Notes: generated by a model from the sequence alone, not told the origin. A DNA stretch of 64,000 nt from Myxococcales bacterium (GCA_029880325.1 JAOUOP010000009.1:57012-121011), one strand, 5' to 3'; counted from the first letter of the stretch, positions 6,426-56,163 are shown. Program-made: numbers and translations.

Positions 6426-6440
6426 GCATGATTCATGCCA
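6426..6440 (-). promoter_or_regulatory. Candidate sigma54 -24/-12 promoter upstream of flgA
   Basis: Minus strand reads TGGCATGAATCATGC (GG-N10-GC), followed by a 13-nt spacer to ATG 6412. Confidence 0.45.
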
Positions 6441-9836: not shown

Positions 9837-10780
9837 AGCAGCATCGCGAGGTGGTCGGCGCTGGCCGCTGTCAAATCCTCCGGAACCCTTTGTCCCGTGG
9901 TGAAATAGGTCAGTGGTGCATTGGCTGAAATCTGAGCGCGCGCGATGGAGCCGAAGGTCACGGCCTCATCGAGCTTGGTGGCGATGACGCCAGTCACGCC
10001 CAGTCGAAGGTGGCGCTCGACGACCGCCTCGAGTTCGCGCGCCGGGGTGGCGGTAGCCACACACAGCTGCACCCCGATGGAGCGTCCCCCATCGTGCAGA
10101 AAGTGGGCGAGCTGGCCAAAAGCGTGAAAGTCCTTGGGCGCTCGGCCAGCGGTGTCGATCAGGATGCGGTCGGCATCAGCCAGGCGATCTAGCGCACGCG
10201 ACAGGGAGGCGGCATCGTCGGCCGGCACCATCGGGATGCCAATGAGGTCCGCGTAGTGCTGCAGCTGTTCGGCACCGCCGATGCGGTACTGGTCGAGCGA
10301 AACCAGGCCTACGCGTTCCCCATCGACCAGGGCGGCGACCGCGGCAAGCTTGGCCAATGTGGTGGTCTTGCCAACGCCTGTGGGCCCAACCAGAGCCGTA
10401 ATGCGTGGAAGCTGCAGGCAGCCCGGGTCGCCTGCGGCGAAGTGCAACTCCTCTCCCAGCGCCCGAGCCACGCTCTCGGCCAACATCCGCGGGTGGCGGG
10501 GAACCGCACCGTCGCGTTCACACACTCGGTCCTCCAGCGCTGCAGCGGTCGCGTGGGGCACCCCCTGACTTTCGAGCTTGCGTGCCAGGCTGCCGCGAAA
10601 ACTGCCATCGGCAAGCAACAGCCCTTTTTCCTGAGCGTCAATCTCCGACAGCGCGCGGACCTCGACGCCGCGCGGAGACACCGCCCGTGTGCTCAGAATC
10701 ACGGCACCAGGGCCGAGTTCGCTCTTGATGCGTTCGAGGGCCTGCTCATATTTCGGGGCTCTATAGGTCTGTACGGTCAT
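9812..10780 (-). CDS. flhF: SRP-like GTPase FlhF
   Basis: GPTGVGKTTTLAKLAA, DTAGR and ATKLDE GTPase boxes. The start was moved to ATG 10780 (MTVQTYRAP...), 11 nt after the flhA stop. The track ORF runs to 10921 inside flhA. Confidence 0.85.
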   Translation of the reverse strand: MTVQTYRAPKYEQALERIKSELGPGAVILSTRAVSPRGVEVRALSEIDAQEKGLLLADGSFRGSLARKLESQGVPHATAAALEDRVCERDGAVPRHPRMLAESVARALGEELHFAAGDPGCLQLPRITALVGPTGVGKTTTLAKLAAVAALVDGERVGLVSLDQYRIGGAEQLQHYADLIGIPMVPADDAASLSRALDRLADADRILIDTAGRAPKDFHAFGQLAHFLHDGGRSIGVQLCVATATPARELEAVVERHLRLGVTGVIATKLDEAVTFGSIARAQISANAPLTYFTTGQRVPEDLTAASADHLAMLLCQREEMQ

Positions 10781-13916: not shown

Positions 13917-14692
13917 CAGCGCACTCCCAGCACGTCGGCCAGGGCCGAGGGCAGACCACGCACGGCGATGCCGATGGCGCGGGCAATCGTGGGGGCGGCG
14001 GCGAAGAGCGAGAGAAGGCCGATGGTCACGGCCACCGCGAATGTCAGCGAGAAGAGCTGCACGCGCGGAGCGGCCCGCGCCACCAGGGCGGTACCGAGTT
14101 GAACGATGAACATCGTGGCGACCACGGGAGCTGCAATCTGCAGGCCCCGTGCCAGCATTGAAGAGCCCACCCCGAGCGCCGCCTCGCTGGCGAAAACCTC
14201 CATCACCGCCCCCGGCGGCGCCAGCTGCAAACTGGTCACAATCGCGCCCACGACGGCGTGATGTCCCTCAAAAACCAGGAAAATTAGGGCCCCGAAGTAT
14301 CCCAACAGGCGCGTGGTGGGCAGTGTGGCTTCACCCAGAGTGGGGTCGACGCTGGTGGCGAAACCCAGGCCCATGGAAAAGCCCGCCACCGTTCCGGCGA
14401 TCTCGACCGCTGCCAACGTGACGCGCACCGTCAGCCCGATGACGGAACCCACCATGATTTCCCCCAGACCAGCGCCCACAAGCAGCAGCGGTTCATGGCT
14501 TGCGGGCGGCGCCAGATCGAGCGGCAGCGCCGTGGCCCCCGCGATCCACAGGGTCAGCACAGCACGTATGCTGATCGGCGTCATGGTGCTGAAAGGTGGT
14601 GGCATCAGCGCCAAAATCACCCCCACTCTGAGTGAAACAAGGAATACCAGGGGCAGCGCAGTCGCGGCCGCCGCCTCGAGCGCCCCGCTCAT
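13916..14692 (-). CDS. fliR: Flagellar export protein FliR
   Basis: 258-aa polytopic membrane protein between fliQ and flhB. Confidence 0.88.
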   Translation of the reverse strand: MSGALEAAAATALPLVFLVSLRVGVILALMPPPFSTMTPISIRAVLTLWIAGATALPLDLAPPASHEPLLLVGAGLGEIMVGSVIGLTVRVTLAAVEIAGTVAGFSMGLGFATSVDPTLGEATLPTTRLLGYFGALIFLVFEGHHAVVGAIVTSLQLAPPGAVMEVFASEAALGVGSSMLARGLQIAAPVVATMFIVQLGTALVARAAPRVQLFSLTFAVAVTIGLLSLFAAAPTIARAIGIAVRGLPSALADVLGVR

Positions 14693-16895: not shown

Positions 16896-17248
16896 AGACC
16901 TCCGCCGGACTGCCCCAAACGCCGAACGCGCTCGTCCGGAGCGACGATGTCGGTGACGCGCACCCCGTAGCGCTCACCCACGACGACCGCCTCACCGTGG
17001 GCGATCAACGTCTCATTGGCGAAAATCTGCAGCGGCGCCCCAGCCGGCTTGTCGAGTTCGACTACCGAGCCCTCACCCACTTCCAGCAGTTCACTGACGC
17101 GCATGCGCCGTCCACCAAGCTGCACGTGCAGCACAAGGGGCACATCGAGTATGCGCTCCACATCGCCCAGGCTGCGCCCGCCGCCGGCAAGCCCACCGCC
17201 GAAAGAGGCCGCCAATGCCTCCATGCCCATATCGTCATCCTGTGTCAT
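16892..17248 (-). CDS. fliN: Flagellar C-ring protein FliN
   Basis: SpoA domain: LDVPLVLHVQLGGRRMRVSELLEVGEGSVVELDKPAGAPLQIFANETLIAHGEAVVV. Confidence 0.92.
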   Translation of the reverse strand: MTQDDDMGMEALAASFGGGLAGGGRSLGDVERILDVPLVLHVQLGGRRMRVSELLEVGEGSVVELDKPAGAPLQIFANETLIAHGEAVVVGERYGVRVTDIVAPDERVRRLGQSGGGL

Positions 17249-18213
17249 GCGTTCCTCACCTGTGGTGTCGCCGAAACTTCGATCGCCAAATTTCCATGCA
17301 GAATCACGGGGGCGCCCAATGCCACCGTGGTGTCGTCGATACGCAGCTCGAGGGGCACTTCGGGCGCCTTGTCGAGCCGAATGATGTCGCCCTTGCGAAG
17401 CATCAAGACGTCGCGCAGGGTGACGTCGGTCTGGCCGAGCACGGCGACCATGTCGACCATGGCCTCGCGCAAGCGCGCGCAGAGCCTCTCTTGGTCACCG
17501 GGCGTGCTGCGGTGCTTGCGCGGCTTGTGTCGCGGTAAAGTGTCGCGCACAGCTCCGGCCGATAGCGCCAGCATGACTTGCTCGCTGATCAAAGGCGTCA
17601 GCGCCACGCGCAACGAAACCTGCAGCATCGGCTCGAACTGCGTGAGCGCTGGCAGGTTGGTCATGTCAGTGAGAATTTCCTCGGGCGTGAGCGCCTTGGG
17701 GTCGTCGCACCAGGGCTCAGCGAAGGCTTCGACCAGCGCGACCAGCAGCGGAAGCAAGATGCGCCGATCGAGAGTGCTCAGTTCCGTGCGCGGCGGAGCC
17801 TTCTCCTCCTCGTCGAGACGCAACGGTGCGCCCAGGCGGCGATTGAGATAGAAGCTCACCAAGAGCGGCCCCAGAACCAGCAGTGCCGAACTCCCTCCGC
17901 GGGTGCTGATCGACAGCACCGCCGAACCGGGCTCGATGCTGTTTTTCACTACCTTGTAGGGCACGATTTCGGCGGGCTGTTCTTCACTGCTGGTCGAGAA
18001 GTTGGCCAGGCGCAAAAAGAAGCGGTCGGTGTGCTCGGCCAGGATTCGCGAGACGCCGTCAGCCTTGGAGAGGGAGTCACGTAGACGCCGCTCGGGGGAG
18101 GTGAGGTCAGCTTCGTCGACCGGCTCCTCACCCTCCATGCCAACGCGCAGGGCGTCGAGCAGGGCCGTGGTCTCTTCCGCCGATAGCAGCGGCTCGTTCG
18201 CGTCACCGCTCAT
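17245..18213 (-). CDS. fliM: Flagellar C-ring protein FliM
   Basis: 322 aa. N-terminal LLSAEETTALLDAL (CheY-P docking-type motif), a middle FliM domain and a C-terminal SpoA-like part. Confidence 0.9.
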   Translation of the reverse strand: MSGDANEPLLSAEETTALLDALRVGMEGEEPVDEADLTSPERRLRDSLSKADGVSRILAEHTDRFFLRLANFSTSSEEQPAEIVPYKVVKNSIEPGSAVLSISTRGGSSALLVLGPLLVSFYLNRRLGAPLRLDEEEKAPPRTELSTLDRRILLPLLVALVEAFAEPWCDDPKALTPEEILTDMTNLPALTQFEPMLQVSLRVALTPLISEQVMLALSAGAVRDTLPRHKPRKHRSTPGDQERLCARLREAMVDMVAVLGQTDVTLRDVLMLRKGDIIRLDKAPEVPLELRIDDTTVALGAPVILHGNLAIEVSATPQVRNA

Positions 18214-18704
18214 TGCACCACGAACTCGGTGAAGTAGATGCGCTTGATGACACCCTCGCCAACGACGCCGGCCAACTTGTTCTCGAGTTCCTCACGCATG
18301 GCGACCTTGTTTTCGACGCCAACGGTCTGCTGAACCCCGATGCCCGAGAAATAGAAAAGAGCCTGATCCCGCAAGGGAACCAGGCTCTCGTTGATCTGCT
18401 TTTCTGCTTGTTCGTTCTTGGCTTCGATTCTCAGTGAGACCTTGATGTAGCGACCGGCATCGGGGTCGGAGAGATTGGCCACGATGGGACGCATCTCGAC
18501 CAGCGGCCCGAAACTGGGGCCCTTGGCCTCCGAAACACCCGCATCACTGGCCCCACCGCCACCCCCGCCCGCGGCGCCGACGCGGTCCGTGCTGACCACG
18601 AAATAGCCAAGCCCCGCAAGGCCCAGCAGGTTGACCACGGCGAGCAAGACGACCAGGAGCCCGCTCTTGCCACGTTTTGTAGGTGTCTCGGCTTCCTTTT
18701 CCAT
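18210..18704 (-). CDS. fliL: Flagellar basal-body protein FliL
   Basis: 164 aa with a single TM. RYIKVSLRIEAKNEQAEKQINESLVPLRDQALFYF is the typical FliL core. Confidence 0.88.
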   Translation of the reverse strand: MEKEAETPTKRGKSGLLVVLLAVVNLLGLAGLGYFVVSTDRVGAAGGGGGGASDAGVSEAKGPSFGPLVEMRPIVANLSDPDAGRYIKVSLRIEAKNEQAEKQINESLVPLRDQALFYFSGIGVQQTVGVENKVAMREELENKLAGVVGEGVIKRIYFTEFVVQ

Positions 18705-18718
18705 GACTCTTCAGAAGA

Positions 18719-18733
18719 GCACGTCCCGTGCCA
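18719..18733 (-). promoter_or_regulatory. Candidate sigma54 -24/-12 promoter upstream of fliL
   Basis: Minus strand reads TGGCACGGGACGTGC (GG-N10-GC), followed by a 14-nt spacer (tcttctgaagagtc) to ATG 18704. Confidence 0.6.
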
Positions 18734-18868
18734 ACGCCGTGCCCGCAATTCGCGGGGGAATTCCCCCCCAAAGGCGCTCTCGAGCGACAAAAGCTCGACT
18801 TCCGGAAGCGCGCGGGCGACGGCGTCGTGACGGTGGTTTTCCATGGCGAATCGAGCCTCCAAAACCGA

Positions 18869-20164
18869 TCAGCGCTTGAGGTTGACCAGCTCGCCATACA
18901 TCTCGTCGGCGGTCGTGATCACGCGGGAATTGGCCTGAAATCCCCGCTGATAGGCGATCATGTTGACGAACTCTGTGCCCAGGTCGACGTTGCTCTGCTC
19001 GAGCGCTCCGGCCACGACCGAGCCGCGACCGCCGGCCTCGGCAACCCCGATCAGGGCCTCGCCCGAGGCCTCGGTGGCCGTCAAGAGCCCCTGTCCGGCG
19101 CGCGACAGGCCGTCGACGCTGGTGAAGTTGGCGATCGCCAACTGGCCGATGGTGCGCATCTGACCGTTGCTGAAGACGCCCGTGATGACGCCATCGGCGC
19201 CAACCGAAACGCCCGCCACCGTGCCCGAGGCATAACCGTCCTGGGTCAGTCCAGTGGTGGTGGAGGGCGCGGCGAACTGGGTGAAGCCGTCGAGGCCGGT
19301 GCCGCCGTCGGTCGTGATGGAGGTACCAAAATCGAAGTCGATGACCTGGCCGGCGGTGGCGTCGATGAAGTCCCAGCTGCTGGCGCCGGCCGTCTCGGTG
19401 TCGAGCGCGCCGTCGGTCGTGAAGGTCAAGGTACCACTGGCGCCTTCCACCGGGACGCCGGGCGTACCACCGACCACGTCGCCGCCATCCACCATCGCAT
19501 GCCACTCCCAGGCGTTGCTGGCGCTCTTGCGGAAGTAGGTGGTGATCTCGTGGGAATTTCCGAGCGAGTCGTAAACCGTCAGGGTGTTTGAGAAGTTGCT
19601 GGTGGCTGCCGGATCTGTGGGGTCCCAGGCCGGCGGCACCACCTCGTTGGAATCGAGATTGGCGGCGATGTCGGCGGAGGTGGTTGCACTGGCCGGGACG
19701 GTACCGGGACCGACCACGATGTCGCCCACGGTCGTCCCCATGGTGCCGTCGGGGTTGGCGGTGTAGCCCTGCAGGCGCAGGCTGTCGGGGTTGACCAGGT
19801 GACCGGTGTTGTCGATGTGGAACTGACCGGCGCGGGTGTAGAAGTTGCCGCTGGCGCCGCCGACGGTGCCCTCGACGACGAAGAAGCCGTTGCCCTGCAG
19901 CGCCACGTCGGTGGGGGAGTCGGTGGTCAGAAGCGCTCCCTGGGACCACACCTGTTGAATGTGAGCCAAGCGCGAGCCGGCGCCCGCCGTCGGCGTAGAG
20001 TTGGTGGTCGGAATCGAGCGGCCGAGGAGATCCTGAAAGACGCCGCGCGAGCGCTTGAAGCCCACGGTGTTGACGTTTGCGATGTTGTCACCGGTCACGC
20101 CCAGCGCCTCACTGTGCGACTGAAGACCGGAGACGCCGGTGTTGAGGGAACGTAGAATACTCAT
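18869..20164 (-). CDS. flgE: Flagellar hook protein FlgE
   Basis: The start was set at ATG 20164 (MSILRSLNTGVSGLQSHSEALGVTGDNIANVNTVGFKRSRG). The C-terminus is FVNMIAYQRGFQANSRVITTADEMYGELVNLKR. The track ORF extends upstream into the spacer. Confidence 0.92.
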   Translation of the reverse strand: MSILRSLNTGVSGLQSHSEALGVTGDNIANVNTVGFKRSRGVFQDLLGRSIPTTNSTPTAGAGSRLAHIQQVWSQGALLTTDSPTDVALQGNGFFVVEGTVGGASGNFYTRAGQFHIDNTGHLVNPDSLRLQGYTANPDGTMGTTVGDIVVGPGTVPASATTSADIAANLDSNEVVPPAWDPTDPAATSNFSNTLTVYDSLGNSHEITTYFRKSASNAWEWHAMVDGGDVVGGTPGVPVEGASGTLTFTTDGALDTETAGASSWDFIDATAGQVIDFDFGTSITTDGGTGLDGFTQFAAPSTTTGLTQDGYASGTVAGVSVGADGVITGVFSNGQMRTIGQLAIANFTSVDGLSRAGQGLLTATEASGEALIGVAEAGGRGSVVAGALEQSNVDLGTEFVNMIAYQRGFQANSRVITTADEMYGELVNLKR

Positions 20165-27909: not shown

Positions 27910-27924
27910 GCAACCTTCATGCCA
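27910..27924 (-). promoter_or_regulatory. Candidate sigma54 -24/-12 promoter upstream of flgB
   Basis: Minus strand reads TGGCATGAAGGTTGC (GG-N10-GC, TTGC -12 box), followed by a 14-nt spacer (ttcgtattctggcc) to ATG 27895. A sigma54 activator gene lies directly upstream. Confidence 0.6.
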
Positions 27925-50694: not shown

Positions 50695-53064
50695 TCAACC
50701 CTTTTGCAGCTCTGCCGCCATACGATTGAGTTCCTCGGCGGCGCGTTGGCAATCGGCCGCTCCGGTCGTCGTGCTCTGAGCCGCGTCCGCGACCGCCGTG
50801 ATGTTCTCGGCGATCTCGGCGCTGCCGCGTGCGGCCTCGCTGATGTTGCGGCTGATGTCGCTGGCGGTCGCGGTCTGCTCCTCAACCGCCGTGGCGATGG
50901 TCACCTGGATGTCGTTGATCTGCTTGACGATCTCGTTGATCTGGGCGATGGCCTCGACAGCGCCGTTGGTGTCGCCCTGGATCGCCTCGATCTTCTGGCT
51001 GATGTCCTCCGAGGCGGTGGCCGTTTCCTTGGCCAACTCCTTGACCTCGTTGGCCACGACGGCAAATCCCTTGCCGGCTTCGCCCGCGCGCGCCGCCTCG
51101 ATGGTGGCGTTGAGCGCCAGCAGGTTGGTCTGCTGCGCGATGGAGGTGATCACCTTGATGACCTTGCCGATCTCCGTGCTGCTCTCACCCAACTTGGCCA
51201 CGGTGGCGTTGGTGCGCTCTGCCAGCTCGACACCCGTGGTGGCGACGCCCGAAGCATCGCTGGCGTTTTGCGCGATCTCCTTGATGCTGGCGCCCAGCTG
51301 CTCCATGCCGGCGGCCACGGTCTGCACGTTGCGGCTAACCTGCTCGCTGGCAGCCGAGACCACGTTGGCCTGGGCCGAGGTTTCCTCGGCGTTCGAAGCC
51401 ATCTGTTGACTGACAGCGAGCAGCTCCTCCGACGAGGTTGCAAGCGCGGTCTGCAGCTCGGCTGCGGTCTTTTCGTCGGCCACTTGCTGGGTGATGTCCG
51501 ACCAGGTCACCATGGCACCGATGTAGTCGCCCCGATTGTCGTAGATCGGGCTGACCAGCAGATCGAGGGTGGCCGGGCCCACCCCGATCTTGGCGTTGTG
51601 CGGCAAGTTGCTGGAGTCGGAGAGCAGGGCGCGCTGATGGGCTGGATTCTTGTGGAAAACGTCGATGCAGGTGCCCACGAGATCGTCGACCCGAACCGGT
51701 AGGTATTGCTCGAGGGTCTTGAGCGTACGCGTGGACGCGGGGTTTACGTACTGGATGACGTTGTCGCGGTCGGCGAACATCACGTTGACCGGCGCGTTCT
51801 CCATCATCGAGTTCACGCGCGCCATTTCGCGCTCGAGCTTCAGCCGATCGGTCACCACCTCCCAGGTCACCATCGGTCCCACGAACTGCCCGTCGGTGCC
51901 GTAGACGGCGCTGACCAGGAGGTCGAGGTACTCGCCTCCGAGTTCGATGACCGCGCGGTGGGGAAGGTTCCTGGGGTCACCCAGGAGTTTCCGCTGGTGG
52001 GATGGATTTTTGTGAAAGATGTCGACCGACGAGCCCACCACCTCGCTGGCGCGGCAGGGCAAGAGGTGCTCGATCTTCTTCAGCGTCTCGACCGAAGCCT
52101 TGTTGATATAGCGGATCACCAGATCGGTGTCGGCGAACATCACGTTCAGCGGCGCCCCATCGAGCATGGTGCGGTACTGTGCCAGATCGTCATCGTCGGA
52201 AGCGGCGCGGTCGCTTACGTTTTCCCAGCTCGCAACGTAGCCCTCGATCTTGCCCTTGTCGTCGAGCATGGCCTGAAAGCGCGTCTCGATGGTGGCCTCG
52301 CCCAGCTGCACGCTGCTGCTCTCGGGCAGCTTGCGCGGATCGGAAAGCAACCTCTTGGCCTTGCGACCGCGCTCGTGCAAGTCGAAGAGGTCGGCCCCCT
52401 CCCAGTCGTCGACGCCCCAGCCCAACGCCTCCAACGCGCTTTCGGGCAGCTCATCGAGGGCCTGTCGTGCCGCCTCGTTGGCGTGGGTAATCTTCAAGTT
52501 GGCCCCGGCCACAAAAATGCAGACCGGCGCCGCATCGAGCGCGACCTGACTCACGCGCGCCATCTCACCGGGCGGTTTGGGCACAGCCGACAAATGTGCG
52601 GGCGGCTGCACGGACGTTCCATTGCTTCGCATCGACTTTCCTCCGTTCGCGGGCTTTTCTTCGCTCGCCCGAGTACTCTTTTGATTGACGACCGATTCCT
52701 TCACAGACGCGGCCACGCCCAGCACTTCGTTGGCCAGGGCGGAGGGCACGCGCAGGGACTTCAGCGCGGCCCTGAGGTGCAGGGCCACGGCCTCGAAGTG
52801 CTCGCCCTCGATCGGAAGATGCGCATGGGCATCCTTCATGCTGCGACCCCGGTAGCGGTTCGGCCCCCCGAACGCATGGGTCAGGAAATCCACCTGCTGA
52901 TTCTTGAGCCAGCGGATATCGACGCCCTCGAAGAACGGCTCCAGGCTATCGTCGCTCAAGACGCGCAGGTAGAGTTCGTCGACCACCGCACGGATGGCCT
53001 TGCGGCCTCCGAGGCGTTCGAAGAGCGGCGGGGTGCTAGCGGCTGCGTTTGCGGAACGTGACAT
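50695..53064 (-). CDS. Soluble methyl-accepting chemotaxis protein: truncated hemoglobin + 3 PAS + MCP signalling domain
   Basis: aa 10-125, [70 protein letters not shown], fit the group I trHb pattern. Three PAS-like repeats follow, two carrying (D)IFHKNP. The C-terminal hairpin has [28 protein letters not shown]. No TM segment is present. Confidence 0.85.
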
Positions 53065-55918: not shown

Positions 55919-56163
55919 GGCTTCGCTTGCACTCCATCACAAGGTGCGGGTCGGTGTATTCAAGGTCGGGTGCGCGCCGGACCCCTACGCGGTGACAGCT
56001 CCCTCGCCGCGCAGATGAGTACCGTCGTAGTACCCGGTGACTAAGCAAGACGCGTGCCTCGCCGGTGCAGGGCAAAGCACGCGAAAAAGTGCGCGTGATG
56101 TCGGTCGCCAGCCCCCGCTTCGGCAAGCCTCTGGCGCTGTGCTGACATGGCCTTGACATCCCC

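Follow-up and report, generated by a model that had tools for sequence, protein, structure and literature searches.

The stretch of DNA analysed here (the window) is 64,000 nucleotides long, comes from a Myxococcales bacterium (GCA_029880325.1 JAOUOP010000009.1:57012-121011), and carries on its minus strand a complete flagellar gene cluster headed by the gene for an NtrC-type enhancer-binding protein. The order of the cluster is flgB, flgC, fliE, fliF, fliG, fliH, fliI, fliJ, fliK/flgD and flgE, followed by fliL, fliM, fliN, fliO, fliP, fliQ, fliR, flhB, flhA, flhF, flhG, fliA, flgF and flgG, and then by flgA, flgH, flgI, a gene for a rod-binding protein and flgK. (The block from fliL to flgG contains 14 genes, rather than the 20 given in a first-pass annotation of the window.) Much of the remaining window consists of chemotaxis, motAB, PilZ and EAL genes. 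The element of interest is a σ54-type -24/-12 motif in the 164-nt intergenic region between flgE, which ends at 18869, and the co-oriented fliL (Table 1).

Ahead of fliL, the minus strand reads TGGCAC (18733..18728), GGGAC, and then GTGC (18722..18719), which places GG and GC at a distance of exactly 10 nt, in the canonical TGGCAC-N5-NTGC register. TGGCACGGGACGTGCT (18733..18718) deviates from TGGCAC-N5-TTGC(W) at one position only, where the first T of TTGC is replaced by G, the majority base of the clade (16 of 31 promoters). The motif, the 14-nt spacer and the fliL start at 18704, all of which had been proposed in the first-pass annotation, are confirmed from the minus-strand sequence. This ATG (18704..18702) opens MEKEAETPTKRGKS and is the sole plausible fliL start. 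A start further upstream is impossible because of an in-frame TGA at 18713..18711, 9 nt 5' of the ATG; the next in-frame start codons lie within the transmembrane helix; and homologous FliL N-termini begin at the equivalent ATG, the start that public gene calls also give. The product scores 63.6 bits against a PF03748 gathering cut-off of 24.6 and has an N-terminal transmembrane helix, and its gene lies directly 5' of fliM; the NCBIfam FliL models match it below their cut-offs. (An open reading frame (ORF) in another frame, 18431..18844, with its ATG at 18844 and a distant GGAGG, is considered spurious; it has no Pfam match and overlaps the well-supported FliL frame.)

No GGAG, GAGG, AGGA or AAGG is present 3-13 nt before ATG 18704 or ahead of the start codons of flgB and flgA. 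In contrast to these three operon heads, most genes inside the cluster have a Shine-Dalgarno sequence or an overlapping stop and start. At fliM the start codon overlaps the fliL stop and there is no Shine-Dalgarno sequence; therefore, synthesis of FliM is probably coupled to translation of FliL. Within 18400..19100 there is no promoter-like site of the σ70 type, and the two terminator-like matches found there lie within fliL or on the opposite strand. No Rfam family matches 18300..19200 at E values up to 1. The perfect palindrome near the -24 box is not conserved in relatives and, for this reason, is probably not part of the promoter core.

Table 1. Features of the fliL region and of other relevant sites in the window (all coordinates refer to the window).
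Feature	Position	Strand	Remarks
fliL, 164 aa	18210..18704	minus	Pfam PF03748, E 2.7e-17
Spacer tcttctgaagagtc, 14 nt, from -12 GC to fliL ATG	18705..18718	minus	no usable Shine-Dalgarno
σ54-type -24/-12 element TGGCACGGGACGTGC, fliL	18719..18733	minus	GG 18732-18731, GC 18720-18719; weight-matrix score 22.9 bits
Perfect palindrome GGGGGAATTCCCCC	18754..18767	minus	between upstream element and -24 box
Element GTCGAGCTTTTGTCGC, 16 nt, GTCG-N7-GTCG	18784..18799	minus	starts 66 nt upstream of TGGCAC; candidate upstream activating sequence
fliM	17245..18213	minus	ATG overlaps fliL stop (ATGA); no Shine-Dalgarno of its own
Predicted flgB promoter TGGCATGAAGGTTGC, 14 nt, ATG 27895	27910..27924	minus	ORF is a FlgB-type rod protein
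Predicted flgA promoter TGGCATGAATCATGC, 13 nt, ATG 6412	6426..6440	minus	signal peptide after ATG
NtrC-family enhancer-binding protein (REC, AAA+, Fis-type HTH/HTH_8)	28162..29586	minus	Sigma54_activat E 1.3e-71; immediately 5' of flgB
PAS-HisKA-HATPase histidine kinase	29761..30987	plus	divergent from activator gene
Motif TGGCACGGGGCCTGC in fliR coding sequence	14140..14154	minus	223 nt upstream of flhB ATG 13916; codons L-A-R-G-L-Q
Motif TGGCACAGTCTGTGC	36239-36253	plus	155 nt before REC-EAL gene ATG 36408; divergent from motA
Motif AGGCACGCGTCTTGC	56045-56059	minus	126 nt before cheA ATG 55918

The same layout is found at flgB and at flgA. At flgB the spacer has the length seen at fliL, as the first-pass annotation had stated. 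At flgA, the longest-ORF start (6571) and an ATG within the motif (6436) are probably unused. Among relatives, the flgB motif lies 14 nt before an ATG in L007/L014, 13 nt before an ATG in L030 and 15 nt before an ATG in L031; in L028 it lies 14 nt, and in L029 and L037 13 nt, before a GTG. The flgA motif lies at 13 nt in L032 and at 14 nt in L034, and L033 and L035 have weaker motifs at 17 nt. Of 31 homologous promoters, 26 have a spacer of 13 nt (11 promoters) or 14 nt (15 promoters), and the others have 15 nt (1), 16 nt (1) or 17 nt (3); the abutting start codon is ATG in 29 of the 31 and GTG in 2. Other σ54-like motifs of the window lie at ordinary distances from their genes, namely cheA at 126 nt, the REC-EAL gene at 155 nt, and flhB at 223 nt.

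Gene calls and longest-ORF starts are often placed inside or upstream of the motif, or later (L028 5054, L031 19544, L030 10001, L033 9225, L032 9315, and the window ORF starts 27913 and 6571). In the L028 flgB call the ATG is taken from within aTGGCAC, and in the L031 fliL call it is taken from within CCATGC.

Whether the fliL motif could be a chance occurrence may be asked by counting and by comparison. The window contains 4 exact matches to TGGCACN6TGC, with 0.87 expected. A loose pattern allowing one mismatch gives 26 matches, compared with 26.4 expected from shuffled sequence, and is not enriched; the consensus in International Union of Pure and Applied Chemistry (IUPAC) code, also with one mismatch, gives 6 compared with 3.7, an enrichment that is not significant. 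Because the one-mismatch pattern is not enriched in the window, counting of the motif by itself is weak and equivocal evidence. A weight matrix was also built from 31 promoters, three of them being the window's own sites. It gives 4 matches of at least 17 bits, with 0.17 expected from first-order Markov simulations, and six of at least 12 bits, each preceding a motility or chemotaxis gene in sense orientation.

Conservation among relatives provides the decisive evidence for the predicted promoter. Loci were fetched around FliM, FlgB and FlgH homologues in genome and metagenome collections. In 21 of 22 related Myxococcota loci, a set in which L007/L014/L027, L016/L018/L025 and L011/L022 are near-duplicates, so that independent lineages are fewer than loci, TGGCA[CT]-N6-NTGC is found 13-17 nt (mostly 14 nt) before the fliL ATG; the exception is L037. 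The FliL proteins of these loci are 34-55% identical to that of the window, and the flanking DNA is unalignable. In an alignment of 20 loci, no columns other than those of GGCA, TGCT and ATG are invariant, and the 40 nt upstream are without conservation. The conserved promoter positions match the contacts of σ54 (GG/GC, TGGCAC and TGCT), whereas interior positions vary freely. These comparisons support the earlier proposal that a genuine second σ54 promoter heads the fliL operon; they also bear out its argument that a spacing like that of flgB speaks against chance.

The arrangement of fliL in some relatives is also informative. In L007, L014 and L027, flgB and fliL are divergent, and both genes have a motif 14 nt before their own ATG. 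The intergenic region (3055-3435 in L007) is ~380 bp long and holds two outward-facing σ54 motifs with a single GTCGATTTGTTGTCGC element, which in L007 is separated from the fliL box by 87 nt and from the flgB box by 247 nt. In L019, the sequence before fliL is unrelated and includes an oppositely oriented FHA-cyclase gene; the motif is still present. Because the motif persists in these divergent and relocated contexts, fliL in such relatives cannot depend on read-through alone. The first-pass annotation had named expression of fliL only by read-through from flgE as the finding that would count against its proposal; in relatives (L007/L014/L027 and L019), the arrangement of the genes speaks against this.

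The exception, L037, lies on a more distant contig (57% G+C). Here fliL has no σ54 motif (region 19237-19282); instead, there is a 44-nt gap between flgE and fliL with a GGAG/GAGG Shine-Dalgarno sequence, while flgB of the same locus keeps the motif, 13 nt before its GTG (region 9997-10026). L037 is thus a natural control in which a predicted promoter accompanies the absence of a Shine-Dalgarno sequence, and vice versa. It also hints that flagellar promoters are gained or lost operon by operon.

A position so near the start codon has a consequence for the mRNA. Mapped starts in Campylobacter jejuni lie 8-13 nt downstream of a σ54 motif whose end is 2 nt beyond the GC (PMC3847290), and the RpoN motif of Caulobacter has its first base at about -26 (PMC4287350). 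This geometry predicts a transcription start ~11-15 nt after the -12 GC (PMC3847290, PMC4287350). At these promoters, the predicted start would then fall within 0-5 nt of the ATG. For fliL it would be at ~18704-18708, 0-3 nt before the AUG with the 14-nt spacer, in keeping with the 5' end near 18705-18708 expected in the first-pass annotation, and would leave no room for a Shine-Dalgarno sequence. By convention, an mRNA counts as leaderless when its 5' untranslated region is no longer than 5 nt (PMC12754779). The fliL motif is very probably a real σ54 promoter, and, since the 13-14 nt spacer coincides with starts expected 11-15 nt after the GC, the fliL mRNA is probably leaderless. The tight spacer, the near-exclusive use of ATG and the lack of a Shine-Dalgarno sequence are what a requirement for a 5'-terminal AUG would predict.

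The likely activator of the fliL, flgB and flgA promoters is a candidate encoded in the cluster itself. The protein encoded at 28162..29586 carries GAFTGA and a Walker A motif. Its gene also neighbors flgB in L028 and L029 and is nearby in L031 and L037. Against the NCBIfam equivalogs it scores 327 bits for FlgR (cut-off 750), 323 for FlbD (cut-off 750) and 403 for NtrC (cut-off 558.6), below the cut-off in every case; by these scores it is a member of the NtrC family that falls outside any named NCBIfam equivalog. Judged from adjacency only, the divergently encoded kinase is possibly its cognate sensor.

Upstream of the fliL promoter lies a GTCG-N7-GTCG direct repeat with a period of 11 bp, of which GTCGANNTNNTGTCGC has one exact copy in the window, at this position. 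Of 20 fliL promoters, 12 match the consensus GTCGAnnTnnTGTCGC at 66-117 nt upstream of TGGCAC, with 0-3 mismatches and always in one orientation. The core, GTCG-N7-GTCG, is present in 14 of 20 fliL promoters, where it lies 66-133 nt upstream of the -24 boxes, and in 2 of 6 flgB promoters, with 0.024 expected per region. It is a candidate activator site for fliL, and its distance fits an upstream activating sequence (UAS). In most lineages GTCGAnnTnnTGTCGC is specific to the fliL promoter; L028/L029 and the divergent L007 are the only loci in which flgB shares it. One UAS common to the window's flgB, fliL and flgA was looked for and not found.

The window holds 5 copies of GTCG-N7-GTCG in total, 3 of which lie within 400 nt upstream of the fliL promoter on the same strand; two of these clustered copies are inside the 3' end of flgE (19103-19117 and 19015-19029, both on the minus strand). 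Such clustered copies may form an array of activator sites. At 28030-28070 (minus strand) a tandem 12-nt repeat, (G/A)TCGTGGTGTGC twice and then GTCGTGC, was seen by eye ~110-145 nt upstream of the flgB -24 box; at flgB, it could correspond to the upstream element of fliL.

Taken together, these observations are best read as a functional σ54 promoter that starts a leaderless fliL operon mRNA, and this overall reading is judged likely. In the proposed mechanism, σ54 holoenzyme would bind TGGCAC-N5-GTGC to give a closed complex, which an NtrC-type enhancer-binding protein, most likely the GAFTGA response regulator encoded beside flgB, would remodel to an open complex, perhaps acting from GTCG-N7-GTCG ~70-130 bp upstream. 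The transcript would begin right at or just before the fliL AUG, and this 5'-terminal AUG would be translated without a Shine-Dalgarno sequence. Consequently, FliL and the coupled FliM would be made efficiently only from transcripts of this promoter and not from flgE read-through. The flgB and flgA operons would share the design in which the promoter abuts the ATG.

Several points weigh against a leaderless, activator-driven fliL mRNA. No rpoN is among the annotated genes of the window. Ahead of flgB and flgA in the window the upstream element was not found, and classical NtrC-type sites are inverted repeats, unlike this direct repeat; for the latter reason, the element may bind a protein other than the NtrC-type activator. 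A few relatives (L011, L012, L033, L035 and L036) have spacers of 16-17 nt. The start codon is GTG in two flgB genes; GTG initiates leaderless mRNAs poorly in E. coli, although some other bacteria use it. Predicted folding of the first 42 nt of RNA is uninformative, with means of -7.5 kcal/mol for 31 candidates and -8.1 kcal/mol for 22 internal genes, which do not differ (P = 0.59). Finally, Shine-Dalgarno-like GGAGG/AGGAG sequences lie within the spacers of L028 flgB and L035 flgA, so translation from longer, read-through RNAs may also occur.

These last sequences also favor an alternative that accepts the σ54 promoter as real. Here fliL would be translated mainly from longer transcripts, made by flgE read-through or from another upstream promoter, through a Shine-Dalgarno-independent or standby process, and the closeness of promoter and start codon would be a by-product of compact intergenic regions. 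It is in keeping with the co-orientation of flgE and fliL only 164 nt apart, and with the lack of a convincing coding-strand intrinsic terminator in the gap between them. However, this alternative is unlikely, given that the 13-14 nt spacer is kept in most promoters despite very divergent genomes, whereas ordinary σ54 leaders in the window (cheA, REC-EAL and flhB) are 126-223 nt. Nor are the intergenic regions compact; they range from 164 to ~380 nt, with the promoter at the downstream edge, against the ATG. The strong preference for ATG and the Shine-Dalgarno sequence of the motif-less L037 also argue against it, as do the divergent and relocated arrangements, in which no co-oriented flagellar operon lies upstream of fliL.

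A second alternative is that the motif is not a promoter, but a binding site for σ54 or another protein, or an RNA element on a read-through transcript, serving as a roadblock, processing site or translational operator. In enterobacteria, σ54 holoenzyme does occupy many non-productive or intragenic sites. Yet the conserved positions are exactly the σ54 contacts, and the motif always faces in the sense direction of its gene; it persists in loci that lack a co-oriented transcript from upstream; no Rfam match is present; and a gene for a cognate-type activator adjoins the cluster. On this evidence such a role is very improbable. As for the possibility that, in a GC-rich genome, a short and degenerate consensus was matched by chance, the one-mismatch counts given above would be compatible with it, but the comparative data effectively refute it: the orthologous position is conserved in all but one locus amid unalignable flanks, the same geometry is found at two further operon heads, and exact and weight-matrix matches are enriched.

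Of the other σ54-like motifs in the window, the one embedded in fliR was compared with the homologous sites of relatives. Among 9 distinct loci, 8 retain the rare Ala codon GCA, although GCA makes up 6.7% of the Ala codons in the window's flagellar genes (naive binomial P 3e-9); Leu is encoded by TTG in 3 of the 9. The retention of this rare codon points to selection on the motif at the nucleotide level. It is probably an internal promoter for flhB and flhA that subdivides the fliL block. The motifs before cheA and the REC-EAL gene suggest that the σ54 regulon may extend to chemotaxis and to turnover of cyclic di-GMP.

By its sequence relationships, the host is an uncultured, flagellated member of the Myxococcota that is Polyangia-like. 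This assignment follows from the presence of the same FliL protein on metagenome contigs from ENA and JGI samples and from the nearest FliM homologues, which are at most 51% identical and, where named, belong to Polyangiales, Sandaracinaceae or Myxococcota metagenome-assembled genomes. Cultured Myxococcota, in contrast, glide rather than swim. Flagellar genes in such uncultured Myxococcota genomes have been noted earlier (bioRxiv 10.1101/2021.07.06.451402). Two other products were noted for their domain combinations. In the che operon of the window, a chemoreceptor (50695-53064, minus strand) combines bacterial-like globin, PAS and MCP signalling domains and may be a globin-coupled sensor. In L032 (16466-17227) and L034 (16444-17058), CsrA and FliW Pfam matches fall on one product beside a flagellin-type gene, which may be a CsrA-FliW fusion.

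In Pseudomonas, Vibrio, Campylobacter, Helicobacter and Caulobacter, flagellar genes, those of fliL operons among them, are well known to be under σ54 control. In Pseudomonas aeruginosa, fliLMNOPQR is a class II operon dependent on σ54 and FleQ, while the σ54 flagellar operons of Vibrio cholerae use FlrA and FlrC. The window resembles these two systems in having a -24/-12 promoter before fliL-fliM-fliN-fliOPQR, an NtrC-family activator in the flagellar region, and FlhF, FlhG and FliA in the same cluster. It differs from them in that their promoters are described with ordinary leaders and ribosome-binding sites, whereas in the window only 13-14 nt separate the -12 box from the ATG, and in that its activator is a REC-AAA-HTH protein below all NCBIfam equivalog cut-offs. 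With FlgS/FlgR of Campylobacter and Helicobacter and with FlbD of Caulobacter it shares a two-component-type enhancer-binding protein that, with σ54, drives flagellar structural operons (rod and hook genes in Campylobacter and Helicobacter). FlgR, however, has no DNA-binding domain, whereas the window's activator has HTH_8.

The predicted mRNAs resemble the leaderless mRNAs of Actinobacteria, Deinococcus, Caulobacter and archaea in their lack of a Shine-Dalgarno sequence, their nearly invariable ATG, and the fixed, short distance from promoter to start. Leaderless mRNAs are usually discussed as a σ70, stress or ancestral feature, and σ54 promoters are the textbook case of tightly off, activator-gated transcription. 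In C. jejuni, the leaderless mRNAs that have been reported all have σ70 promoters (PMC3847290), and the leaderless mRNA proposed for myxobacterial pexR has a σA promoter (PMC12754779). While described leaderless mRNAs use -10 elements of the σ70 family (PMC3847290, PMC12754779), those predicted here would depend on σ54 and an activator, would occur at three operon heads of one machine, and would be conserved in the clade. No description of σ54-driven leaderless flagellar mRNAs, or of a fixed fusion of promoter and start codon, was found in the open-access literature searched; genome-wide tables of start sites, such as that of S. meliloti (Sinorhizobium meliloti; PMC3616915), may hold isolated σ54 leaderless cases. 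The σ54 flagellar promoter is therefore the known part, and the fixed fusion of -12 box and start codon at three operon heads across the clade appears to be the new one.

As a practical matter, TGGCAY-N6-NTGC followed by 13-14 nt and ATG provides a simple rule for correcting start-codon calls. A bolder proposal, advanced tentatively and with somewhat less than even confidence, is that the σ54 promoters of flgB, fliL and flgA have been fused to their start codons throughout the lineage, such that the first cistron (for fliL, also fliM) would be translatable only from leaderless, activator-initiated RNA and read-through RNA would be silent. If so, enhancer-dependent initiation would be a direct gate on translation competence. 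To our knowledge, such transcription-translation gating has not been described for σ54 regulons. Conserved at three operon heads of one machine, a fusion of σ54 promoter and leaderless start would imply that σ54 transcripts can be systematically leaderless; it would also hint at a means of tying first-cistron expression to the position of the RNA start, and in this way of insulating adjacent co-oriented operons from one another without a terminator. These findings add detail on how flagellar genes may be regulated in uncultured Myxococcota, whose flagellar systems have received little study.

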